NCBI GenBank assembly: GCA_951406725.2
Contig: OX597835.1
Span: forward strand, 30,628,001 to 30,692,000
DNA length: 64,000 nt
From: Octopus vulgaris
Taxonomy: Eukaryota
Direction of reading: 5' to 3'
Positions within the stretch are counted from its first letter, which is position 1, and every line of letters starts with the position of its first letter. The notes beneath the pieces were generated by a model that saw only the letters and a list, made by a program, of their open reading frames with translations, ran no database searches and had not been told where the DNA came from. Below are positions 4,170 through 63,696 of this stretch, piece by piece. A program made the position numbers and the translations under genes.

Positions 4170-4690
4170 GCAAAGCAAATTAAATATAATTTGGGATTTT
4201 TTGCGAAGGGATAAAAGTGGTAACAAGAACAGGACAGTAAAAACAAAACAAATAAATGCGGTAAAATACAGGACAAGGAGAATAACACAGTAAAGACAAA
4301 CGGTAAGGGCTGTTAAGCCTTTGTTTTTACTGTCCTGTTTTTGTTACTACTTTTATCCCTCCGCAAAAAATCCCGAATTTTATTTAATTTGCTTTGCGGG
4401 AAGGACTGCTTCAACAAAGTCGAGTCTTGCCCTTACCTTCGAAACACGGTGTAGACGAAATAGAGGCGGCTGAAGAAGAGGAATATTCCTTGTGTTGTAT
4501 GTCTTATACTCTGTTTTTTCGTTGTTTGAAAAAAAGTCCGTTTCCATGGTTTTGTTTTTATGTTTTCGTTATTCATTGTGTTCGACGTCTTTTTAGTGTC
4601 CTGTACTTATATATGCATGTATATATGCATATAGATGTAGGTATGTACATATGTGTATGTATATATGGATATGGTTTATTTATTAGTTTG
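4170..4690. mobile_element. Hairpin (arms 4170-4247/4320-4397) plus tail element; tail family recurs at about 14190-14440
   Basis: About 78-bp imperfect inverted repeat. The segment cgaaa(t/c)agaggc(g/a)gctgaagaag..aaaaaagtccgtttcc is shared with 14210-14300. Confidence 0.6.
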
Positions 4691-4691
4691 T

Positions 4692-4738
<47 letters not shown>

Positions 4739-4895
4739 CGTACATACATGCACACACATACGAACCCCCACACACATATACATACACACACATAAATATA
4801 TAGGGAAAATTCAAGAAAAAAACAACAAAAGACGAAGACAGGTGGTGTAGAAAACAAGCAGATGTATTAGTATAACGCTCGGGAATTGAAAAAGT

Positions 4896-4931
4896 CTTTA
4901 ACGTTTCAAGCCTACGTTCTTCCACAGAAAA
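4896..4931 (-). ncRNA. Ultra-short hammerhead variant (CUGUNGAA core) inside element 4801-4970
   Basis: UUUU CUGUGGAA GAAC-GUAG-GCUU GAAA CG UU AAAG; stem II partly decayed. Confidence 0.5.
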
Positions 4932-4966
4932 GAACACACAAACAAACAAGGAGAAATACAAGGAGA

Positions 4967-5899: not shown

Positions 5900-6707
5900 G
5901 TGTATATATATATTATTTGCATTGGTTCCAGATAAACTCTCGTTTATCCTGTTGTTACTTGCACTCTACATGTATGCTGTGTCTGCACACCAATGCCCGG
6001 GGATAAAACATAAAACTCAAACCGATAGCATATATGTGGATATTTTATCCCTTAATCCATTATTATAACCGCTAACTCTGTTTACACACGCACATGCACA
6101 CACATACACTCACACATACACTCACATACACACACCCACACATATATTGATGCACACAAGTAAATACATAAATGTAAAACAAATTGGAATAGATAGTACT
6201 CGATTACCGAAGATAGAGTTTTTAATTGAAGTCGAATAATATTCTCACAAACTGTCCCTCGGAGTATTACGTTACCGTGTGTCGGACAGTTGTAATCAAA
6301 ACAGTCCAACGAATGCTAACGTGATACACAGAGTGACAGTCTTGTGAAGAATATTTTCGTTTCTAGTACATGCGAGTGTATGAGAGTGTATACGTGTGTA
6401 TAGATAAATAGATAGACACATAGATGAAATTGATAAATTAGATAAATAGGTGTGGTAAGAAGCTTACTTCCCAACCACATCACTCCATGTTCAGTCCCAC
6501 TGCATGGCACTTTGTGCAGTTGTTTTCTACCAGAGCCCCGGGCTGATCAAAGCCTTGTGAGTGGATTTGGTAGACGGAAACTAAAAGAAGCCCGTTGTAT
6601 ATATATATATATATATATATACATATATATGTATGTATGTATGTATATATATATATATATGTATATATATGAATAAAAAATGGAGTTAACGCAGGCTTAA
6701 ACAAGTA

Positions 6708-6804
6708 TTTTTACTTTCTACACATGTTTCGAAAATTCCACTGATACTATTCAAAAGAATAAATGGTATAAACAATGCAATCTTCTCTTCGGGAAAGTGA
6801 AAAA
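6708..6804 (-). ncRNA. Type I hammerhead ribozyme in PLE pLTR (U4C core variant)
   Basis: Stem I UUUUU-C-ACUUUC/GAAAGU-AAAAA; core CCGAAGA; stem II GAAGAUU/AAUUUUC; GAAA; stem III ACA-UG-UGU; predicted GUA cleavage between 6719 and 6718. Confidence 0.75.
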
Positions 6805-6997
6805 AACGAAACTCGTCAATACGACATTTTAGCAAAAAATGATGGATTTGTATAGCGATAGACAGAACGCTATTAATATTGTTTAAAAACGTTATATGAT
6901 ATAACGTCATAAGTAGCTAACAGAAAGAGTAGGGATATTAATAGTGAATGTTAAATATAAAGGAAATTAAAGTTTAAATTATATATAATGATAGAGA

Positions 6998-7568
6998 CTA
7001 CTTATATGCACTAAATGTATGTTTCTGCCAATGCTTACATCTGTATGCTCGTTCTATAACCGTGTTTACTAGAGTATTTTTAGAAAAAATAATGAAAAAT
7101 AGCTCAGAATTGCAGAGAAGACAGAATTTCTTGCCTTTGTCATATGGTATCGAAATTGAGAGGATCAATCATTCTAAATGAAATTGTTCATTGTGGTCTT
7201 TTAAATCCCAAAATCAGTTTGCTGAGACCGGTACTATTCCGTTTATTTCTATCCCTAAATGTTGAGTAATGGATAGAAATTCTTTTAGATAACTCTAACG
7301 ATGTGCTTCCAATGTAAAATCGTACTTCATTACGAGTACTGATTATACACTGGTATATAGAATTTTTAATCTTAGAGTTACTTGACATAATATTTCTAGA
7401 GGGTTTGATGGTATTAGCTAAATTAATGTTAGTATTAGTAAATGTATTAATATTTAACAGTTTGTTATTATGAGAGAATATAATTTGCAAGAGATTTTTT
7501 GTGTTTGAAAAACCTATCCTAACCTTATGTGAATTAATTATAGAGTAATATCTAGAATTGTTTGGAAA
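6998..7568 (-). pseudogene. PLE ORF C-terminus: GIY-YIG endonuclease (frameshifted)
   Basis: Reads FPNNSRYYSIINSHKVRIGFSNTKNL..HNNKLL..KNSIYQCII..FYIGST..KRISIHYSTF..STGLSKLI/WDLK..PYDKGKKFCLLCNSE..RCKH. A 1-nt frameshift near 7211 is absent in the inverted copy at 7569-7790. Confidence 0.85.
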
Positions 7569-7787
7569 AGTACCGGTCTCAGCAAACTGATTTGGGATTT
7601 AAAAGACCACAATGAACAATTTCATTTAGAATGGTTGATCCTCTCAATTTCGATACCATATGACAAAGGCAAGAAATTCTGTCTTCTCTGCAATTCTGAG
7701 CTATTTTTCATTATTTTTTCTAAAAATACTCCAGTAAACACGGTTATAGAACGAGCATACAGATGTAAGCATTGGCAGAAACATACA

Positions 7788-7869
7788 TTTCCCGAAGAGA
7801 AGATTGCATTGTTTATACCATTTATTCTTTTGAATAGTATCAGTGGAATTTTCGAAACATGTGTAGAAA
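7788..7869 (+). ncRNA. Second (inverted) copy of the PLE hammerhead, stem I shortened by a deletion
   Basis: UUUC CCGAAGA GAAGAUU...AAUUUUC GAA ACA-UG-UGU A GAAA. Confidence 0.65.
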
Positions 7870-8914
7870 GTAAAAATACTTGTTTAAACCTGCGTTAACT
7901 CCATTTTTTATTCATATTATTCAAAATATTCAACGTAAACACGAAGTTTCAACCTTTATAAACAAGGAGTTACAACATCTTTAGTTGTGAGATTTTTGCT
8001 GCCCTGGTAACTATTCATTTATTTTTCCGTGTTAATTGTTAACAAGGTAAAAATACACTCATCTATTTATATGTATATATATATGTATATAGCTGTTTGT
8101 GTTTTCCTCCAACACCCCTCCTCACCATCTCTTGACAACCAGTGTTCGTATGTTTACGTCCCCGTAACTTAGCAGTTCAGAAAAAGAGCCTGATAGAATA
8201 TCAGGCAGAAAAACTTCAAGATGCTCCCCCAGCATGGCCGCAGTCTAAATACTGGAATAGGTAAGAGATCAAAGATGTATATCTATGTACGTGTATGTGT
8301 GTATGTATGAATGTATGTACGTGTGCATGCATGCGTGTGTGTGTGTATGTGTGTATGTATGTATGTATGTATGTATGTATGTATGTATGTATGTATGTAT
8401 ATGTTAGCCTGTTTTGTGGTTTCATTAGACTTCCAATTTATACAGTGAGTCACACGGGTCATATATATATATATCCTGTTTCTTTAGCTTATTGTGTACA
8501 TATAATACAATACGACCATACCAGCTAAATACAGTTAGTATATTTAACTTTCAGGGACCCCGTCAATCTAAGCATATAGAAAAAGCAGAAATTATGGTCC
8601 CAACAGGCCTCCGTATAACGTACTTTATAATAACTCGCTCAAGACTTCCTCCGCCATCATGGACGTAAAAAACGATCCCCCCCTCCACTGCCATTGCCAA
8701 CTGCTTAAAAAAGAATAATAAATATAATCAAGAAACAATAATATTTAGTATTTCATAAAATTCTTTTCTCTGTATCCAGGTCCCAGAGGTAAATGTGATT
8801 TAAATGAACGGGTTCCGACTGGGAATCGAAATCAGATCGTGGTTTTGGTCCGTCGGGATTCAACAGCTTCTGGTTGAAGAACTTGTGGGCGCTCTCAACC
8901 ACTTTAGTATTTCC

Positions 8915-13300: not shown

Positions 13301-15613
13301 TATTTCGCTGGAACTTACCTGGCAAGGAGCTGGCCAATATTCATTTCAGATACTGGCAGAATGACGGCAATTTCGGGAGAGGGGTTAAATCGATTGCATC
13401 CACTCCACTGTTCACTATTTCAAAGGGATGAAAGACGAAGTTGACTACGATGCAATTTGAACTCAGAAAGTAGAGATGGACAAAATGCCGTAATGCATTT
13501 TGGCCCGTGAGCTAACGATTCTATCAGCTCGCACCTTAAGGTTCTAATGAATATTAACAGCAAATGGAGACGTTATATACGATACACTCACTGAAGTTCA
13601 TGACTTTTGTTGCATTTGTATCTTTCTTTTCAGCTCTCATTTTTCCAGGTGTTCGTGATCGTTGCCCTCTTCCCTATGACAAAGTCTGAAGATACGTGAT
13701 TTTTCTCGGAATAAAGTACAGCACTAGTTTCACGTTGCATTCTGCGATTTATCTAGTTTAGTCTGTTAATTTCCTGAGAGCTCAAGTTTACCCTTGCGGC
13801 AGAGCGCATATTTTAAAACATAGGCATAGAGACATGTTCACATGGGCGTATCTAACACATGCGTAGATGCTAGGATTGCTCCGAGTTTTGTATGCTAAAG
13901 CCACAGGTCTATCTGCTATTTGATACAAAACTTCACAGGCCAGAATATGTCTGGTATTAATGGTGTCTGAACATACGAACTGAAGCCTCACTGTTGGAAT
14001 TAATTTAATGTGCTTCCTAGAACATTTGTATGACCCGAGGAAAGTGTTACCCGAGTTTTCTGAACAGATCCTTCGTCAGTATATTTCTCATCTCCATGAC
14101 ATACAAACTTTTCCAAATTCACAAACGTCGCTATGTTATATTTCTTCACTCACACCAACCACCACTTGTCTTTTAAGACTGATTGTATTTCGAAGGTACG
14201 CAATGAGTCGAAACAGAGGCAGCTGAAGAAGGGGAATGTTCCTTGCGTTGTTTGTCTTGTACTCTGTTTTTCGTTGTTAAAAAAAGTCCGTTTCCTTCTT
14301 TTGTTTTTATGTTTTCGTTTCTCGTTGTGTTCTAAGTATTTTTTGTGGTGTCCTGTACCCATATATGCATGCATATATACATATAGATGTAGGTATGTAC
14401 ATATATGTATGTATATATGCACATGTTTTATTTATTAAATTGTTATTATATATATATGTGTGTGTGTGTCTTCGTACGAATGTAGATGTTTCATTTTAGC
14501 TGAGAAAAATCATACATATAAGTTGACAGCCTTGGCGAATTATAATATTTACGGAGTATGTAATAAAACATTGACTGTAATATGTGGCGGCATTTTTAAT
14601 TCAGCGTTACACATGTTTCATTACAAGAGAGGAAATACATTTTATGATAATAAATATTAATATTAATAATCATATTATAAACTCATAAAAGAAATATGCA
14701 TACATCTACAAACATCAAGAACATTCTTAATCTGTCAACTTTGAGTGATAGATTAAAATAATTATTCAGAATCTATGCCTGGACATTAACAAATAGTAGG
14801 TGTTCTCTATGTTTATAAATGTATGTATATATTTATTATGAATTTATTATATTTATAGTATTATTAATATAAACATTTATATTCATATAATGCATTCTTC
14901 ATATTGTTATGAAAGGTGTAACAGAATTGAAATGGTACTACATGTTTTGGACTATCATTTTATTTCTTTTATTTTAAGTAAATTTGCAGTGTGTTGAATT
15001 TAGCTTTATTAATTTGTATCTCGAATTATACCGCGCTGGAGTCGCCAGAGTGGATGAAATGGCGCTATACACAACTCTTTTGTTAACTTTGTTACAATTA
15101 AGAGAAAAAAAGAATAAAAACTAAAAAATAAATATCTATGTTCTGTAACTTAATTTAAACTAGAAGTGATTCTTTTCCCTTAATGGAAAAATTCACCGGA
15201 GGAAAAAAACATATGTACGAATGTGTGTATGTATATATATATATATTTTTTGTTATCTCCCTTGTACCTTTCCCTCTGTCCCTTCCTCTCTCCCGCCTCT
15301 CTCTCTCCTTATCTAATTCTTCAATCCCTCAGCCTCTTACCTCTCTCAGTTCCTCCCACCTGATCGGTGCTCGGTCAAGAATGATCTTTCTTTCTTGGCC
15401 TGATCGCCGAGCGCACAACACTATATTTTCCTGTCTTCCGATACATAATTATGTTTGTTGCCGCAAGGCTTCTACTTCAAACGTCAGCATAACTTAATTT
15501 GTCCTTTTAGTCAAAAGACACCTGTTGTTATTCTTGTTAGTTGTATTTGTAATCGTGTAACATTTTCTCGTTTTATTTTTGGTCCTTGTTGTCGAACATA
15601 TTCGCTTGCTTAC

Positions 15614-24839: not shown

Positions 24840-24881
<42 letters not shown>

Positions 24882-24976
24882 GGGAAGCTTTACGAAAATA
24901 AACAAAAGACGAAGGCAGGTGGAGTACAAACAAACAATTGTATTAGTATGGCGCTCAGGAATAGAAATAAAACATG

Positions 24977-25014
24977 TCTTTTACGTTTCGAGCCTACGCT
25001 CTTCAACAGAAAGA
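24977..25014 (-). ncRNA. Ultra-short hammerhead variant (CUGUNGAA core) inside a ~170-bp element (24878-25050)
   Basis: UCUUU CUGUUGAA GAGC-GUAG-GCUC GAAA CG UA AAAGA. Confidence 0.65.
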
Positions 25015-26027
25015 TACACAGAAAAGAAACACGGAGAGAAACAAGGAGATATATAATTTTAGCATTATCGATGCCACATATAATGTACGTGTGTTGCTAA
25101 ACGCAGACTGAACACGTTTAACAACGCATATTTAATGTGACATCGGTAACGTGTGTGTGTGTGTACGTCTGTATGTGTGTGTGTTCATGCATATATACAA
25201 GCTGACTGAATACTCAAAAAACAGAAGAATCACAGTTTAAATAAATCACCAAGAATCAAATTTTAAACATCGAAAGCATACGCACACTCGGAGATGCATT
25301 AATAAACATATACGCACATACACCTGCACACTTAAACATACACAGACACACATATACCGAACTAACGCACATAAACATACACACTTCTCATGTATAAACA
25401 TCAATACATAGATATAAGTATTGATGTTATATACACTCACTCACTATCGTAAACTCGTGTAGGAGCAGATAAACACGGCCATACATTTGGACAACTGAAT
25501 GCACATTGCATTTCGAGCGATTATACGCCTTAACACATGACAATACCTCAATGAAATTTCCCCTTGAATCCCGAAAGTTAGAAAGCAAACGAAAGAAATT
25601 CCACATTTCTTCCTTTTTTTTTTATGTCCCCTTATTCTCACCCATTTTGTCTCCACTCGATTATGTCTCTTCTCGTTCTTTATTTACGGACGCACAAAGA
25701 ACAAGACAGTAAATTGAAGACATCGTATCTAAAACCAAACTACAAGCAGTGCAAAATACATACGCACGCGCACTCTGACAAATGCATACATCAGGCAAAA
25801 CACAAAGCAAAAAAGGCGAGATATACAACAGCAGCCCACACAAGACGTACAACAGATGACAACACACAGAGTTTAATAACTGAAGTAAACTAAGAACAAT
25901 GTATATTTATTGAAATACACAATCGTTGTATCAAAATTATGTACAAATGATCAAACATCTCGGATTGGGAAAATGAAAAAAAAAAAGAAAAGAAGCTAAA
26001 ATGATATAAATACAATCGTAGTAAATA

Positions 26028-33400: not shown

Positions 33401-33630
33401 TCTGTAAAATAATATGTGACAATTATTCAATAGCCAAGATAAAACTCTGAGTTTCGGATGCCGAGGTGGAAATCCACAACACCATCTCTTCGGTTATATG
33501 GCGCCTGAAACTCAAAGCTTTATCCTGGCTATTGAATAATTGTCACATATTACTTTAGGGATAAATTTCCTCTATTTACATAATATTGAGGTCTTTTTCT
33601 TTCTTTTGTTATCTTACCGTTTTTACCAAC
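33401..33630. mobile_element. Short hairpin-plus-tail PLE-related element, copy 1
   Basis: Inverted arms of about 50 bp (33410-33457/33504-33552) followed by a tail ending ...cttaccgtttttaccaa; TA flanks; homologous to 48477-48697. Confidence 0.75.
33433..33502 (-). ncRNA. Type I hammerhead-like motif (U4C variant)
   Basis: GCCA-U-AUAA CCGAAGA GAUG..GUGGA-UU-UCCAC..CAUC C GAA ACUC-A-GAGU U UUAU-CU-UGGC. One unpaired C precedes GAAA. Confidence 0.65.
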
Positions 33631-33674
33631 ATATATATATGTGTGTGTATGTACACACACACACACACACACAT

Positions 33675-34197: not shown

Positions 34198-35294
34198 ACA
34201 CCTTTGTGTGTAACGACTGTCAATATGAACCCATACTTTATAGGAATAGGAAGAAGAAAAAGAATATTATTATCACTAGCAACAACAAAAATAAAGAAAC
34301 AATGACAATAACCCTTAATAGTTATATGTTTTTAGATATTTCAAACTTCGTTGTTCAGAAATTGCTGAACGTATATCCCTAGATACTTCGACATTAACAC
34401 GTAATGACACCAGCGTGTCGTTGATGATGCTAAGGCGACAATGTGTCAAAATGGTTAGCACCCTGGGACAAAATGTCTTGCGGCACTTCGTCCGTCTTTA
34501 CGTTCTGAGTTCAAATTCTGATGAAAATGGCTTTGCCTTTCGTTGTTTCGGGCTCGATAAAATAATTACAAGTCGAGCAGTTGGGTCGATGTATTTGACA
34601 TACCCGCTCCTCCAGAAATTGCAGGCATTGTGCGAAAATTTAAAATCGATATGCGATGATAATGGCGTTAATAATTATTAGTCTGGTAAGGGTCGTTTCG
34701 TTATTTGTTGCAATCAACCTTTCAAATATAATCGAATTACTAAATGATCGATATATTGTAAAGATTAAGACCGACAGAATCGTTAAGTATATCGGACAAA
34801 ATGCTTAACGGCTTTTCTTTCGGCGGTCATGCTGGGGCACTTGCCTTGAAGAATTATTAGTTGATTGAATCGGCCACAGTACTATTTTTTTAAAGCTTGG
34901 TACTTATTCTATCGGTCTCTTTCGCCGAAGAGGCTAAGTTACACGAGGGTAAGCACACTAAAATCGGTTGTAAAGGGGTGGTGGGGGACAAACGCAGACG
35001 CAGAGAAACACAAACATAGGAATATATACGACGGGCTTCTTACAGTTTCCGTTTACCAAATTCACTCAGAAGGTTTTTTGTCAGCTCGAGGTTATAGTAA
35101 AAAGATACTTATCGAAGAGGCCATGCAAGGGGACTGAACCCAGGAACCCTGTGGTTGAGAAGCAAATTTCTTACTACACAGCCACGCAAGTTATGAGTTC
35201 AAATCATTTCGAATTAAACTTAACCTTTCAACACTTCGAAGTGAATAAAAAGGAGTACCAGTCAAGTCCAAGGATCAATATAAAGCGGTTCAAA

Positions 35295-35690
35295 GCTGCG
35301 AGCTGGCAGAAACGTTAGCACGCCGGGCGAAATGCTTAGCGGTATTTCGTCTGCCGCTACGTTCTGAGTTCAAATTACGCCGAGGTCGACTTTGCCTTTC
35401 ATGCTTTCGGGGTCGATAAAAGAACTACCAGTTACGCACTGGGGTCGATATAATCGACTTAATCCGTTTGTATGTCCTTGTTTGTCCCCTCTGTGTGTAG
35501 TCCCTTTCGGGCAGTAAAGAAATAGGTATGTCGTTTGTCTCTACGTTCTGAGTTCAAATTCCGCCAAGGTCGATTTTGCCTTTCATTCTTTCGGGGTCGA
35601 TAAATCAAGTACCAGTTGTGTACTGTAATGATCTAATCGACTGGCCCCCCTCCCCCAAAATTTCAGTCCTTGTGCCTAGAGTAGAATAGA
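35295..35690 (+). mobile_element. SINE family B (gagctggcagaaacgttagc..gagttcaaattcc); further copies at about 12215-12390, 13330-13538, 24005-24205, 34440-34650, 35773-35990, 46170-46375, 55148-55285, 60600-61185 and 61870-62152
   Basis: B-box-like gagttcaaattcc and conserved ctttcatcctttcggggtcgataaa..gtaccag core; more than 10 copies in the window. Confidence 0.85.
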
Positions 35691-42607: not shown

Positions 42608-42666
42608 ACTTTTGCATAATAGCAAGGATATGTATGTATTTGTATGTATATATATATATATATACA

Positions 42667-42733
<67 letters not shown>

Positions 42734-42736
<3 letters not shown>

Positions 42737-43129
42737 TGGCTGTGTGGTAAGTAGCTTGCTCACCAACCTCATGGTTCCGGGTTCAGTCCCACTGCGTGGC
42801 ATCTTGGGCAAGTGTCTTCTGCTATAGCCCCGGGCCGAACAATGCCTTGTGAGTGGATTTGGTAGACGGAAACTGAAAGAAGCCTGTCGTATATATGTAT
42901 ATATATATGTATGTGTGTTTGTGTGTCTGTGTTTGTCCCCCTAGCATTGCTTGACAACCGATGCTGGTGTGTTTACGTCCCCGTCACTTAGCGGTTCGGC
43001 AAAAAGAGACCGATAGAATAAGTACTGGGCTTACAAAGAATAAGACCGGGGTCGATTTGCTCGACTAAAGGCGGTGCTCCAGCATGGCCGCAGTCAAATG
43101 ACTGAAACAAGTAAAAGAGAAAGAGAAAG

Positions 43130-43130
<1 letters not shown>
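42734..43130 (+). mobile_element. tRNA-derived SINE family A (CORE-like), full length; further copies at about 552-642, 6449-6600, 8095-8275, 34825-35188, 39165-39295, 40749-40905, 55005-55148 and 60179-60592
   Basis: A/B-box-like head (tggctgtgtggt..ggttcagtccc), cttgggcaagt CORE-like block, internal (TG)n and purine-rich tail; many near-identical copies in the window. Confidence 0.85.
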
Positions 43131-43160
<30 letters not shown>

Positions 43161-43281
43161 TAAAAAGAAGTTCAACCTTGTCTGATTTTCACGTTTTATT
43201 TACAATCTTATAATGATATAAGATAATATAACATATAATAAAATAAAATAAAATAATAGAATGTTAAATGTTCATTCTGAT

Positions 43282-43326
43282 TGAACTAGTACTTTCATGC
43301 ATTAAATTCTGCAATCTTCAGGTTCA
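43282..43326 (-). ncRNA. Minimal type I hammerhead ribozyme (inverted copy)
   Basis: Reverse complement reads UGAAC CUGAAGA U UGCA gaauuuaa UGCA U GAAA GUAC UA GUUCA. Confidence 0.85.
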
Positions 43327-43404
43327 TGTAGTAGTGGTGACAGTCATGCTTCACAATTTTTGACAGTGAAAAAATTGTGAAGCATGACTGTCACCACTAC
43401 TACA

Positions 43405-43449
43405 TGAACCTGAAGATTGCAGAATTCAATGCATGAAAGTACTAGTTCA
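43405..43449 (+). ncRNA. Minimal type I hammerhead ribozyme, canonical core
   Basis: UGAAC CUGAAGA U UGCA gaauucaa UGCA U GAAA GUAC UA GUUCA. Stem I is 5 bp, stem III is the palindrome AGUACU, predicted CUA cleavage after 43444. Confidence 0.85.
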
Positions 43450-43603
43450 ATCAGAATGAACATTTAACATTCTATTATTTTATTTTATTTTATTATATTA
43501 TATTATCTTATATCATTATAAGATTATAAATAAAACATGAAAATCAGACAAGGTTGGACTTCCTTTTATTAATATATTCTTCTATACACAATCACACACA
43601 CCC

Positions 43604-43650
<47 letters not shown>

Positions 43651-44664: not shown

Positions 44665-44711
<47 letters not shown>

Positions 44712-44742
44712 TTCTTTTTCTCTCCTTGTTTTTTCTGTGTAC

Positions 44743-44778
44743 CTTTCTGTAGAAGAGCGTAGGCTCGAAATGTAAAAG
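44743..44778 (+). ncRNA. Ultra-short hammerhead variant (CUGUNGAA core) inside element 44710-44868
   Basis: CUUU CUGUAGAA GAGC-GUAG-GCUC GAAA UG UA AAAG; (TA)n on both sides. Confidence 0.55.
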
Positions 44779-44865
44779 ACTTTTTCTATTCCTGAGCGTT
44801 ATACTAATACTTCTGTTTGTTTTGTACGCCACCTGTCTTCGTCTTTTGCTTTTTTCGTAAACTTC

Positions 44866-44909
<44 letters not shown>

Positions 44910-46101: not shown

Positions 46102-46373
46102 GTAACCCCAAGACTGCGAGTTCAATTCCAGGCAGTGCCTTGAATAAAAAATAATGATAATAATAATTTATTTCTTTATTGCTCACAGGGGATAAACATA
46201 GTGGGGAGAAACAAGGACAGACAAGGGAATTAAGTCGATTACGACGACTCCAGTGATTAACTGGTACTTATTTAATCGACCACGAAACGATGAAAAGTAA
46301 AGTCGACCTCGGTGAAATTTGAACTCAGAACGTAACGGCAGACGAAATACCGCTAGGCATTTTTCCGGGCGTG

Positions 46374-46448
<75 letters not shown>

Positions 46449-48476: not shown

Positions 48477-48478
<2 letters not shown>

Positions 48479-48697
48479 TGTAAAATAATATGTGACAATT
48501 ATTCGGTAGCCAAAATAAAACTCTGAGTTTCGGGTGCTGAGGTGGAAAACCACAACACCATCTCTTGGCATCCGAAACTCAGAGTTTTATCTTGGCTACC
48601 GAATAATTGTCACATATTATTTTACAGATAAATTTCCTCTATTTACATATTATTGAGGTCTCTCTCTTTCTTTTGTTATCTTACCGTTTTTACCAAT
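48477..48697. mobile_element. Short hairpin-plus-tail PLE-related element, copy 2 (hammerhead core cut at the inversion point)
   Basis: Arms 48477-48537/48568-48628; same tail as 33401-33630; TA flanks. Confidence 0.75.
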
Positions 48698-49936: not shown

Positions 49937-50767
49937 AATCTATCTATCTACATGCTTGTTTGTTACGGTGAATAGGCTCAAATATTTTATTTGAACGGAC
50001 AACAATACGATTGCATATACACGCATGCGTAACACGCACAAAGAAAGAGAGAGAGAAAGAGAAAGAATTTTTCTAAGCCTTGTAAAGGAACTCGTAAGAT
50101 TGGTTCTCCAGCCAGGCCTTTCGCGACACCCTTAAAGCCAAGAACCCCCCAGCCGTCCTCCTTTATATGAGGATATGATGGCAGTACTCTGGTGACTGAG
50201 GTCGATCATCACCGACCATAGCTCATGCAATATGCCTGTAATATGTGCATGTAGTTATTGTACTCCCAATAATCTTTACTCGGATTTGCATCCAGGACTC
50301 ACATTATGTCCACGCTACCCTCCAACTCGACATGGCAACCGAAAAATGCTCACTATTGCATAACCTAAAATTTTAGGTGCTCTAAGTCTTGATGAGCACC
50401 TCATAGACTGTCTCTACCAGTTTCAGATGATCCAGAGACAAGCCAAGGTAAGATACCCAATAACAAAACGGGTTGCAGGCTCAGGAATATGTGCTACTGG
50501 TGACATGGGATCCAGTGAAACCTGTTGCATGCTCGGTCGGTGGCGACTAAACTAGTCTTTCTTTGTGAGGGGCTTCTGCTAGTCATACAACAGGTCAAAA
50601 AATAAGAACTGCCAAAAGGCCGAAAGGACTTTGTGAAGAGTAAACGATTATCACGGACACTCAGAAATTCCGAGTTGGTGTCCGGTCTGTTGGGAGACCA
50701 TTGAGAGGGAGGCATTCCTTGTCTTTTATTTCCGGCATGTCTCTAAGAGAAGGTCAGTCTGATATAA

Positions 50768-50998
50768 TACCTATTTCTTTTCTACCCACAAGGGGCTAAA
50801 CACACAGAGGACAAACAAGGACAAACAAACGGATTAAGTCGATTATATCGACCCCAGTGGGTAACTGATACTTATTTTATAGATCCCGAAAGGATGAAAG
50901 GCAAAGTCGACCTCTGCGGAATTTGAACTCAGAACGTAGCGGCAGACGAAATACTGCTACGCATTTCGCCCACCGTGCTAACGTTTCGGCCAGCTCGC
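50768..50998 (-). mobile_element. SINE family B
   Basis: Reverse complement of 35295-35525. Confidence 0.85.
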
Positions 50999-51180
50999 AA
51001 GGAATGGCATCGAACACATACACTCAGATATACACAGACTCAGACACACACTCAGACACACACATGCACATGCACAGCGCACACCTATCCACAGACACAC
51101 AGACACATACGCACAAAGGCATACACACATATATAAATAATTAGATAGATGGTTGGATGGATAGATGGATGAATAGGTAG

Positions 51181-56583: not shown

Positions 56584-56795
56584 GGCGATCTGGCAGAAAC
56601 GTTAACACGCCGGGCGAAATGCGTAGCCGTATTTCGTCTGCCGTTACGTTCTGAGTTCAAATTCCGCCGAGGTCGACTTTCCCGTTCATCCTTTCGGTGT
56701 CGATAAATTAAGCACCAGTTACGCACTGGGGTTGATATAATCGACTTAATCCGTTTGTCTGTCCTTGATGTCCCCTTGTGGGTAGTAAAGAAACA
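56583..56795 (+). mobile_element. SINE family B within (TTA)n
   Basis: Near identical to 35295-35520. Confidence 0.85.
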
Positions 56796-59846: not shown

Positions 59847-60946
59847 GTCTTTCACTTTTCGATTTTTCTCTCCAGCTTGGAAGATTTCAGTACTTTGCAA
59901 ACACGCGAAATGAAATGAACCGACTAAAAACTGCACGATTACTACAGAGCATAAAAACACCACCACCAATAACAACAACAGCAACTCCACCACCACTACC
60001 ACCACCACCACCACTAGCACGAACAACAACCGTAGCAGCAACAGCAAAAACAGCGGTAGCAGCATCAAAAACTACAAGAACAACAAAAGCGTCAACAACG
60101 AAATGAATGCCATTTTCATCCATTTCACTAGAATTGTCTGCGTCCCGGACAAAATGCTTCAAATTTTGGCACAAGACCAACCACATGGTTCCGGGTTCAG
60201 TCCCAACGTGTGCCACCTAGGGCGAGTGTCTTCTAAAATAGCCATGAGTCGACCAAACCCTTGTGTGTGGGATTTGGTAGACGGAAGCTGAAAGAAGCCC
60301 GTCGTATATGTGTGTGTGTGTGTGTGTGTGTATGTGTGTGTGTGTGTGTGTGTGCGTTTTTCTGCGTGTGTGGGTCTGTCTGTCTGTTTGTGTTTGTCCC
60401 ACCAACTTCACTTGACAACCGATGCTGGTATGTTTACGTCCCCGCAACTTAGCGGTTCGGCAAAAAGTGCCCGATAGAATAAGTACTAGGCTTACAAAGA
60501 ATAAGTCCTGGGGTCGATTTGCTCGGCTAAAGGTGGTACTCCAGCATGATCGCAGTCAAATGACTGGAACAAATAAAAGAATAAAAGAATAAGTCCAGTT
60601 AAGACGGAGAAGGGGATAATTCGATTACATCGATCCTACTGTTCAACTGATGCCTCTTTTATCGATTCCGGGAGTATGAAAGGCTAAGTCTTCCTCTGCC
60701 GTATTTGAAATCAGTACAAAAAGACGGACTTTTTTTGCCTGGCGTACAAAGGATTCTGCCACGCTCACTGCCTTAGTAATACTAATAATAACAATAACTT
60801 TTTCTCCTATAGGCATACGGCATGGAGTTTTGGTGGTAGGGACTAATCGATTCCATCGACCCCAGTATTTCACAGATACTTAATTTATCGACCCCGAAAC
60901 AATGAAAGGCAAAGTCTTCATCATCATCATCATCACCACCACCATC

Positions 60947-60992
<46 letters not shown>

Positions 60993-62572
60993 CCACCACC
61001 ACCACCACCATTATGCTTCTATGGTGCGCAGCATATTTTAACAATTTTTTTAAATACAATAGAATTTTTTAAAACATTTAATGACGCGGCGGCCTCGGCG
61101 GAATTTGAGCTCAGAACACAAAGACAGGTGAAATACCGTTAAGTATTTGGGTCGGAGTTCTAACGATTCTGCCAGATCACCAACCTAATAATGAAAACTG
61201 GCAAGCGATATTCATGCAGTTGTTTCCTGTTGGGGTGTGTTCTCCAAGATATTTTTAAGACTGCTCTTAACTTTGGGGTTAACTTCCATCAAGTTTAGAT
61301 CTCATGTTTGGGTTAACACTCTACTCATGTTCTACATATAATAAGAGGGGGGATTTTCATAACTGGAATGTAGTTAACATCTTTAAGAACAATAACACTG
61401 TATAACATGATTTTTGTCCTTAGGTAGCAATAGTTATTTCCTATATGCTGACTTTCCTATATTTTCTTCCAACTCTGCTTTTGTTGCGATAATTATTCGG
61501 ACCCTAAAGAATCATTCTCTACACATGGCTATCATGGACACCACTATTCCTGCTCCTAATCAGAAATATACATATTGTCAGTCATTAAAGGATATGATCA
61601 GGTAGTTAAGGTCAAGCAAATGACAAGCAAATCTATGGTACTGCGCAGAATATTTGCTATAACGATATTTCCGCTTCAACAACTCAGTACTGTCTAAAAT
61701 GTAATGGAAGATAGGTCAGTTCCAAAATGTTGACGTCCAGGTCACAAAAGCAAAGTCTGAAGGGAATAGTAGTCATTTCATTTCGTTTCTAGGGAGTAAC
61801 ACTTAATAACGAAAGACAAAATTTTTAAAAAGTAAAATTAAAATTTCGTTACGTATTGTAATAATTCCTTCTTCTGTTGGCACAAAGCCTGAAATTATGA
61901 AGGGCACCAGTATTCAACTGGTGGTTGTTTAATCGACCCTAAAATGATGAAAAGTAAAGTGGAAAATTCTTTCTGGTTTTTGGCACAAAACTAGCAATTT
62001 TGAAGGAAAGTGCTACTCGATTACATCGACCCCACAGCTAAGAGGTAAATTAAAAGGATGAAAGGAAAATCAAGCTCGGTTATTCAGAACGGAAAGATGC
62101 GGAAGAAATGCTGCTAAATATTTTGTTCGACGCACTCACGTTTGTGCCAGCTAAGACATATTTACCGTAATAACGCTTTCTTTTCATTGCCACAAGGATG
62201 ACTGATGAAGATGATATTACAAGGGCAAGATACAAAAAGAGAGAGAGAGAGAGATAGAGGAAGTTGACCCGGATTCAATTAGAGAAAATGGCTGCCCAGT
62301 AAAAATAAAAGGAAATGGAGAAATAACGAAAGGTTTCAAATGAGACGTCCGTGGGAGAACTCCTAGTGGGATCCTCATAGATCCCGGTTTACTCTGGTTA
62401 CAGAGACAGTGAAGAACAACATGGTCTACATAACAAGTGACTTTGGAATATTCAACCACTACTTATACAAGTGCATATTTTGGCTGTTCTGTTGATAAGT
62501 TGATAAAGTGAGTGTTATACACGTCGAAGATCCATTAATTTATATTTCGTATATATACAGTGCTTTACTATT

Positions 62573-62982
62573 TTACTCTTGAATTTGTTAGTCATTTGAC
62601 TATGGCCATGCTGGAGCACCGCCTTTAGTCGGAACAAATCGGCCCCAGGGCTCATTCTTTGTAAGCCTACTACTTATTCTATCGGTTTCTTTTGCCGAAC
62701 CGTGAAGTTACGGGTATGTAAACACACCAGCATAAATTGTTAATCGATGGTGAGGAGGGGACACAGACACACAAACACACACACTCACTCTCTGACACAA
62801 ACACATACACATACATAAAGATATACGACAGGCTTCTTTCAGTTTCCGTCTACCAAATCCACTCTCAAGGCTTTGGTCGGCTGAGGTTATGGTACATGAC
62901 ACTTGCCCAAGGTGCCACGCAGTGGGACTGAACGCGGAAACATGTGGTTGGCAAGCAAGCTACTTACCACACAGCCATTCCT
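62573..62982 (-). mobile_element. SINE family A, full length
   Basis: Reverse complement of 42734-43120. Confidence 0.85.
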
Positions 62983-63696
62983 GTGCCTATGCATACATAC
63001 ACATATAAATGCACACACACATATTTATGCATACATACATACATAAATACATATACACATACATACATACATACATACATACATACATACATGCATACAC
63101 ACATACATACATCCATTCAGACAGACGGACAGACAGACAGATAGACAGATAGATAAATAGATATATATGACTATCTGTATATATAATTCTCTTAAGTACA
63201 TATGCAAATTTATATTAAAATGTTTGTGTGTGTGTTTATGTATCCGTGTTTGTGTGTGTGTGTGTGTATGTGTCTCTTTGAAAACTCAAAAACCATATAC
63301 ACACACATACTGACAAAGCCGCAAAACTATGTGTTCGTACACGTACACATATTTCTCTACGCACATACACCTATGTATGTATAAATATATCTATAGATAA
63401 TCTGTGATTAGTACTGTAAGTCAATCTCATTTCTTAGTAGTAACCCTGATAGGGAAATCCAACATTCCGCCACGTAGACACTCTCTGCCTGCCTGCCTGT
63501 CTGTCTCTCCATCCGTCTATCTATCTCTCTGTTTGTCCGACCCTTCCTCTTTCTCAATCTCAGCTATATAATGTCTCATAGGATGATATCATAGTCTCGT
63601 TTGACATATTTCAGAGGATATCAGCGAATATTACATATTTCTACAGTCACATTTTAATCTGCACGTGTATGTATGTATGTATATATGTATGCATGC

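Follow-up and report, generated by a model that had tools for sequence, protein, structure and literature searches.

The Penelope-like elements (PLEs) of the Hydra clade are the closest described systems to the locus reported here. They carry hammerheads, insert into (TA)n and leave inverted copies and tails, and one of their families comes from Octopus bimaculoides (Craig et al. 2021, PMC8557442); the diagnostics of the clade include RWK, DKT, CxxC and CxH motifs (section 11 of the same paper). Pairs of hammerheads on opposite strands, 100 to 700 bp apart, have been attributed to truncated PLEs (Cervera and De la Pena 2014, PMC4209133), and the mobilisation of non-coding hammerhead elements by PLEs has already been proposed (Cervera and De la Pena 2020, PMC7229834; Li et al. 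2026, bioRxiv 10.64898/2026.07.22.740005). Octopus vulgaris contains 31 recently active Penelope-like families, in a report whose main text has neither "hammerhead" nor "Hydra" (PMC13282606). The present insertion lies in a 64,000-nt stretch of AT-rich, microsatellite-laden animal DNA from O. vulgaris (assembly GCA_951406725.2, contig OX597835.1, positions 30,628,001 to 30,692,000; hereafter the window). It is very probably a dead Hydra-clade PLE copy, either dead on arrival or decayed since (Table 1).

A phmmer search with the translation of 7191-7598 (minus strand) against 1.84 billion representative sequences retrieved 194 proteins at E ≤ 0.001, the best 150 of which were listed. A profile made of 151 stored phmmer matches, from which the window sequence was excluded, was run against 1593 six-frame segments and matched the C-terminal frames outside the query (7533-7895, plus strand, E = 1.5e-17; 7168-7001, minus strand, E = 3.5e-8), the next-best segment reaching an E value of 0.17. 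This bears out a first-pass annotation of the window, which had read the fragment as the C terminus of a PLE GIY-YIG endonuclease. The alignment presents the catalytic GIY-like, YIG, R, H, E and N residues of an endonuclease-bearing (EN+) PLE, together with CxxC..E and N..CxH (as CLLC..E and N..CKH in both arms) and no CCHH motif. The same combination, a C-terminal GIY-YIG domain without CCHH and with CxxC and CxH around E and N, is described for the Hydra clade, including Hydra-1_Obim (PMC8557442). Among the 29 relatives of at least 690 aa that bear a reverse transcriptase (RT), DK[TS], CxxC..E and a cysteine linker are found in all 29, CxH in 27 and RW[KR] in 26.

The closest named relatives, among the matches listed, are Octopus sinensis proteins. 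One protein of this species, P0151, joins an RT motif (LYRDD; C-terminal half of the RT only) to a linker and endonuclease of the window type, and the RWK/DKT region of the RT N terminus is missing both there and in the window. Four O. sinensis gene models (P0001, P0003, P0004 and P0151; XP_029649382.1, XP_029632940.1, XP_029650703.1 and XP_036366068.1) are PLE fragments with Asn-rich inserts, and low complexity has led to their wrong names ("dyrk1", "myb-like protein I" or DDB_G-like). A Naiad/Chlamys identity, with an endonuclease N-terminal to the RT and no canonical hammerhead, was rejected, as the endonuclease here ends the open reading frame (ORF) and is followed by the 3' untranslated region (UTR) and the hammerhead. 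No relative was found in bacterial and archaeal genomes, so there is no sign of an origin from a prokaryotic homing endonuclease, and word-index searches of proteins turned up no related sequence of greater length for either window piece, which is weak evidence.

The window was probed for an RT by tblastn with 13 relatives and with a profile made from 22 relatives that bear one; at meaningful E values only 6986-7790 was matched, and no RT was found. Moreover, the intact RT-endonuclease ORF of an autonomous element is replaced by a main frame that is broken by an extra base and a premature TGA. With its RT missing and its frame both shifted and interrupted, the copy is dead, which rules it out as the candidate autonomous partner of the first-pass annotation.

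The arms of the inverted duplication match by blastn at 98% (7013-7240 versus 7564-7790) and 99% (6667-6796 versus 7788-7917) and are separated by three substitutions, one indel, one mismatch at the junction and a 216-nt deletion in the plus arm that is bounded by TTT. Their divergence is about 1%, so that either the insertion is young or the arms have been homogenised. The tail continues the plus-strand copy and is absent from the main copy. TA-rich sequence flanks the insertion on either side, and the flanks are colinear with four uninterrupted paralogues in the window (42742-43144, 62675-62972, 60177-60481 and 34905-35179); they are consecutive parts of one repeat, and the element thus inserted into the internal TA tract of this repeat. 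As TA-type tracts make up 5.7 to 8.7% of the window, this single insertion is suggestive of targeting, not proof of it. The inverted duplication, the one-sided tail and the TA flanks claimed in the first pass are therefore real. (TA)n insertion, here seen in one case, an inverted 5'-truncated copy and a one-sided tail are also features of the Hydra clade (PMC8557442), and the last two, tail length aside, are expected of EN+ PLEs. A spliced intron was considered as the source of the 216-nt gap and rejected, since GT-AG or AT-AC borders cannot be obtained however the ends are placed. No tRNA gene was predicted by ARAGORN. The end of the tail (8058-8066) contains the word TCATCTA, which Hydra-1_Crog and Hydra-1_Ajap, by eye, also carry close to their ends in the supplement of Craig et al. 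In addition, a GTGAG word at 7987 in the tail could, speculatively, mark a 5' splice site, given that introns are frequent in the 5' UTRs of PLEs.

The hammerheads of the fragment are of type I and share the core CCGAAGA (U4C), a 55-nt helix II, a near-palindromic 8-nt helix III and a GUA cleavage triplet; the descriptor score is 17 in the main copy and 15 in the plus arm. This descriptor, which was tuned after the motifs had been seen, gives seven matches in the window versus a mean of 0.04 in 100 locally shuffled windows, none of which (0/100) reaches a score of at least 15, so that the U4C-core hammerhead annotated in the first pass stands. Helix I of the main copy has 6 bp and two further stacked helices, with a computed probability of forming of 0.39, versus 4 bp and 0.0004 in the plus arm, where the 216-nt deletion shortens and damages it. 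Only the minus-strand hammerhead is structurally complete. The first-pass description of a complete hammerhead that follows the coding end needs correction: in the main copy the complete core lies 206 nt past the stop codon, and the coding end abuts a hammerhead only in the plus arm, because of the 216 nt deleted there, and that hammerhead is the damaged one.

In the Hydra clade, too, the ORF is followed by a type I hammerhead, in which helix III has 4 bp (PMC8557442), and the predicted presence of such a motif in the terminal repeat is as expected of EN+ PLEs. Type I structure, a long helix II and a short palindromic helix III suited to dimers also characterise the minimal PLE hammerheads (PMC4209133), for which dimerisation via helix III has been proposed; the core variant given in that account is U3-A8, and neither U4C nor A6U was found in the parts of it that were covered. 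The Hydra rows of File S2 (PMC8557442) all have CUGA and a shorter helix II, in contrast to the fragment, and the descriptor used there would miss CCGA; by eye, the fragment hammerhead is also unlike that of Hydra-1_Obim. Among natural hammerhead variants, U4C is already known; its activity is reduced in vitro, but it sustains a viroid in vivo (Perreault et al. 2011, PMC3088659). The computed pairing of helix III between two molecules is -6.0 kcal/mol, and the folding z score of the fragment hammerheads as monomers is about -2.2, which is weak evidence either way; the canonical hammerheads of a short element in the window (G, see below) also have very low computed probabilities as monomers. 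Rfam gave no match in the window at the gathering score, and an E-value run, swamped by microsatellite matches, had no hammerhead family among the best 150 of 603. On these structural predictions, the hammerhead would be the RNA-processing motif of the element itself, and the predicted ribozyme probably needs dimerisation via helix III or the help of a protein, the more so with U4C. Lunse and co-workers are said to have covered hammerhead variants in PLEs in 2017 and may already list U4C or A6U.

Table 1. Features of the PLE insertion and of the short elements (families C, D, F and G) in the window.
Feature	Coordinates	Strand	Description
Whole insertion	6669..8069	both	5'-truncated Hydra-clade PLE (very probable assignment) and head-to-head inverted copy; both 3' ends point outward into TA tracts
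Main copy	6669..7569	-	End of RT thumb region, linker, GIY-YIG endonuclease, 3' UTR, hammerhead, short 3' end
Coding remnant 1	7203..7568	-	Segment following the RT, linker devoid of cysteine, SIY (GIY-like), YIG, R and H; frame shifted by an extra base at 7213
Coding remnant 2	6998..7204	-	Endonuclease C terminus, Hydra CxxC..E and N..CxH; premature TGA 7171-7169; natural stop TAG 7000-6998
Main-copy-only 216-nt segment	6797..7012	-	Last codons, 3' UTR, 5' strand of extended helix I; TTT microhomology at deletion ends
Complete type I hammerhead	6700..6817	-	C3 at 6792, GAAA at 6730, predicted cleavage after GUA at 6719
Inversion junction	7564..7569		Imperfect microhomology (4-6 nt) where the two 5'-truncated ends meet
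Inverted copy	7564..7917	+	Open-frame endonuclease C terminus, joined to hammerhead through the deletion
Damaged hammerhead	7788..7869	+	C3 at 7792, U4C core as in main copy, 4-bp helix I
One-sided tail	7918..8069	+	152 nt, without ATG
Left flank	6450..6668	+	Portion of older composite repeat and TA tract (insertion target)
Right flank	8070..8289	+	Same composite repeat resumes; uninterrupted paralogues elsewhere in window
G	43158..43604		Palindromic, each arm with a canonical CUGAAGA hammerhead (43321-, 43410+); ~30-nt tail, TA flanks
F1	33402..33631		Palindrome, ~75-nt tail, U4C-core hammerhead at 33493(-)
F2	48478..48697		Sister of F1, palindrome, ~75-nt tail; core cut at junction
C, three copies	24880..25050, 4800..4965, 44710..44870	-, -, +	Fixed length, one orientation, minimal hammerhead, CUGUNGA (A6U) core in 3/3
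D, two copies	4455..4695, 14206..14448		Both begin at same point; no complete hammerhead

Several results weigh against the Hydra assignment. Pfam gave no relevant match for any of the three window frames, so that the check proposed in the first pass, a hidden Markov model search against GIY-YIG/PLE profiles, is negative with Pfam and positive with the family profile; among 76 aligned family members, Pfam GIY-YIG is matched at E ≤ 0.1 in 14 (best 7.3e-6) and RVT_1 in one. The predicted model of the window protein has a pLDDT (predicted local distance difference test) of 77.5, and the top three rows of a wide fold search are GIY-YIG nucleases (Z 2.9 to 3.1), with Z below 4 and tied with unrelated rows (half-domain models; Hpy188I, T4 EndoII, I-TevI, Z 2.9 to 3.8). 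A second fold model, of P0008, also stops mid-domain and added little. Foldseek with the window model returned nothing at E ≤ 0.001, and a PDB sequence search with the 76-member profile returned no match. At 152 nt, the tail is far longer than the 30 to 40 bp described, and in this it is unlike the Hydra clade as presented in PMC8557442. The copy is too 5'-truncated to show a pseudo-long terminal repeat or a direct tandem arrangement. Finally, none of the 29 residues preceding the GIY strand is a cysteine, where the Hydra linker has CxCx5C.

This last feature is shared by a small group of sequences. At least three linker cysteines are present in 164 of 177 assessable sequences (from 233 stored plus the window), and six have none: the window, P0001, P0003 and P0151 from O. 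sinensis, P0009, and P0040, which is mis-anchored. Linker cysteines are kept in all nine Hydra rows of Fig. S7 of PMC8557442, including Hydra-1_Obim, and Craig et al. tied this linker to (TA)n insertion as a hypothesis. In a quick tree of 75 of the 76 rows (P0140 left out; 123 columns, linker columns included; support by Shimodaira-Hasegawa-like approximate likelihood ratio test only), the window falls within a 10-row group with a support of 96. The linker is covered in seven of these rows, in which the cysteine motif is found in none (0/7) and an LSSNSK-like motif is shared instead; the other three rows do not span the linker. P0003 and P0151 form one cluster at 90%. The sister group consists of P0011, P0040 (from O. 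bimaculoides) and P0085, with cysteines present in P0011 and P0085 and scrambled in P0040. Because the sublineage nests among Hydra-type relatives, the absence of cysteines is read as a derived loss, and the window copy as a Hydra variant and not a typical member. The alignment and tree thus suggest that an octopus-associated Hydra sublineage has lost the cysteine linker thought to aid TA targeting. No description of a cysteine-free Hydra linker or of a U4C PLE hammerhead was found in the literature covered, judged by titles, abstract starts or passages, in which the linker was not searched by name and which did not extend to subscription papers, Repbase or Dfam.

Eight copies of short elements from four families were examined in the window (Table 1). 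The first-pass annotation had the non-coding elements share the design of the fragment, and this applies to F1, F2 and G, three of the eight copies, which are palindromes with a tail; it does not apply to the three C copies (single orientation, A6U core) or to the two D copies (no complete hammerhead). The G arms differ at 8 of 206 aligned bases, and by eye the core flanks resemble Hydra-1_Crog; most pipelines would call this element a hairpin of the MITE (miniature inverted-repeat transposable element) kind. Helix III of F1 is identical, by eye, to that of the Hydra family Penelope-3_HM. The inversion junctions of F1 and F2 (33470-33530 and 48545-48595) nearly coincide, 9 nt apart, which suggests amplification of the palindrome as a unit or recurrent truncation at the hammerhead. 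In three of the four tailed elements (6669, 43158 and 33402; not F2), the short 3' end lies at an internal word resembling TA, with a few bases in common with the TA target. In family C, A6U is kept in all three copies while core position 7 varies (G, U, A), suggesting the variant as a family trait; of six segments that were folded, two from C (24880-24945 and 44810-44875) missed the C hammerhead and are uninformative. Family D was rejected as a hammerhead: CUGAAGA is present with no GAAA closing helix II, and a stricter scan did not find one there. Its GAAA lies upstream of CUGAAGA, a hairpin follows, and no complete hammerhead of any type is evident. U4C thus occurs in two unrelated families (the fragment and F), and U4C and A6U cores together span three.

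It is plausible, from their design and not from a recovered partner, that F and G are remnants of other Hydra-like PLE families, and likewise that C is a non-autonomous PLE-derived family. Non-LTR (long terminal repeat) retrozymes resemble these short elements in being non-coding, in having a type I hammerhead and in having been proposed as non-autonomous PLE derivatives (PMC7229834; bioRxiv 10.64898/2026.07.22.740005). In the accounts given there, they are head-to-tail tandem units, unlike the head-to-head palindromes F and G and unlike C, which occurs as dispersed monomers; a direct tandem arrangement was found in none of the six C, F and G copies.

It had been proposed that the fragment physically links these hammerheads to a candidate autonomous partner, and its family as the autonomous partner, source or specific mobiliser of the short elements would account for the palindrome, one-sided tail and TA flanks common to F, G and the fragment. 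The 9-nt core start CCGAAGAGA is the same in F1 and the fragment, one F2-tail alignment outscored all 300 shuffles, and the short 3' end of G is the best of 124 TA flanks against the short end of the fragment (score 20; next 14; mean -4.3, standard deviation 7.2). However, the G match was chosen after being noticed, and the F2 match is gappy, AT-rich, not colinear with the hammerhead and one of 22 tests, which the sister F1 fails (228 of 300 shuffles did equally well). Blastn (word size 7) between the fragment and the short families gave nothing beyond microsatellite and one 18-nt end, and helices I to III differ in sequence and length. Among the local alignments, 20 of 22 are within the shuffle range, and the two that at most 5 of 300 shuffles reach are both gappy, AT-rich and not colinear. 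Moreover, the four short families are mutually unrelated in the nine cross-family pairs tested. A partnership with this particular family is thus quite improbable, and the physical link is not borne out. A derivation from PLEs and movement by them is plausible for F and G, given the same design and a Hydra-like helix III, with other PLE families as the partners; in this wider form, already in print, the first-pass proposal survives. As regards the fragment's own family, a joint reading would make it a new octopus Hydra sublineage that was active until recently, has a conserved cysteine-free motif in place of the putative zinc finger, still inserts into (TA)n and has U4C as a family trait. This reading is tentative, at somewhat less than even odds. 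The cysteine-free lineage may itself be non-autonomous or decayed and be moved in trans by a cysteine-linker Hydra family, in which case the TA insertion would say nothing of its own protein; no intact full-length member of the sublineage was found, and those seen are all partial or broken gene models. This is nevertheless unlikely, as RT motifs are still present in P0151, and the replacement motif and the catalytic Y, YIG, R and H are kept across sequences about 46 to 62% identical to the window endonuclease stretch, which suggests selection on the protein after the loss of the cysteines.

The outward-pointing 3' ends of the insertion fit priming from two target 3'-OH ends, and we give about equal weight to this route being correct and to its being wrong. 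From the observed geometry, junction microhomology, two unlike 3' ends and TA target, we infer the following steps. A full-length family member elsewhere would have supplied the RT-endonuclease, which would have cut both strands inside the TA tract, and each target 3'-OH would have primed inward reverse transcription on element RNA. One start would be inner (50 nt past the cleavage site) and the other outer (204 nt past), the latter yielding the tail; both cDNAs would have stopped early and been joined via 4-6 nt of microhomology. The 216-nt deletion, the frameshift and the stop would have arisen during or after insertion, and F, G and C would be remnants or non-autonomous derivatives of other PLE families, made by the same kind of machinery. 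There is a precedent in the Poseidon element PAc of Anolis, whose protein cleaves and extends both strands and whose tail is defined by two RT start sites (Frangieh et al. 2024, PMC11167929); AT-rich targets and a protein-assisted hammerhead are further PAc features. Against this, PAc belongs to another clade, its hammerhead overlaps the ORF start, its tail is 30 to 40 bp, and initiation is described at sites lacking homology; the short ends here do have a few TA bases in common with the target. Searches on twin priming and inverted Penelope copies, judged by titles and abstract starts and with subscription papers not covered, found no PLE-mechanism paper. The inverted arm could instead stem from fold-back of the RT or polymerase (a template switch onto the nascent cDNA) or from later DNA recombination. 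Junction microhomology and a deletion bounded by microhomology fit template switching, and the near-identical junctions of F1 and F2 suggest that a ready-made palindrome was copied. Fold-back of the first cDNA, however, could not produce a tail missing from the main copy, short of a later loss from that copy, and the tail is one-sided in all four palindromic elements of the window; we therefore regard this origin as somewhat unlikely. Palindromes may also be copied whole, as the near-identical F1/F2 junction indicates. Near-perfect inverted repeats can arise artificially, which allows for an assembly or amplification artefact. Here the arms differ by the 216-nt deletion, the tail, three substitutions and an indel, the flanks are colinear with paralogous empty sites, and the same arrangement has been described in PLEs, the Hydra family Penelope-13_HM among them, so that an artefact can very nearly be dismissed.

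The locus itself is ordinary genomic debris with a layout of the textbook kind, and what is unusual is the loss of the cysteine motif and the variant ribozyme core; its value is as a pointer. A Hydra sublineage without linker cysteines allows the need of this motif for TA targeting, a hypothesis of PMC8557442, to be addressed. Variant cores in several co-resident families suggest that standard searches find too few PLE ribozymes and wrongly classify palindromic remnants of PLEs as MITE-like repeats. If the joint reading of the sublineage is true, many PLE ribozymes are missed by CUGANGA descriptors, and the sublineage provides a natural test of the role of the linker and of the two-ended priming behind PLE palindromes. 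The occurrence in one window of four palindromic insertions with a tail is consistent with priming from both cut ends, which is testable in the anole in vitro system.

The window also contains two abundant repeats resembling short interspersed elements (SINEs), and no hammerhead was found in either. One is a composite of two SINE-like halves in opposite orientation with a TA/TG tract between them (42629-43161, 62530-63085, 60177-60592, 34857-35188, and 6450-6668 with 8070-8289). The second SINE-like family often lies beside (TAT)n (35297-35529, 46169-46377, 50767-50999, 56585-56786 and others).

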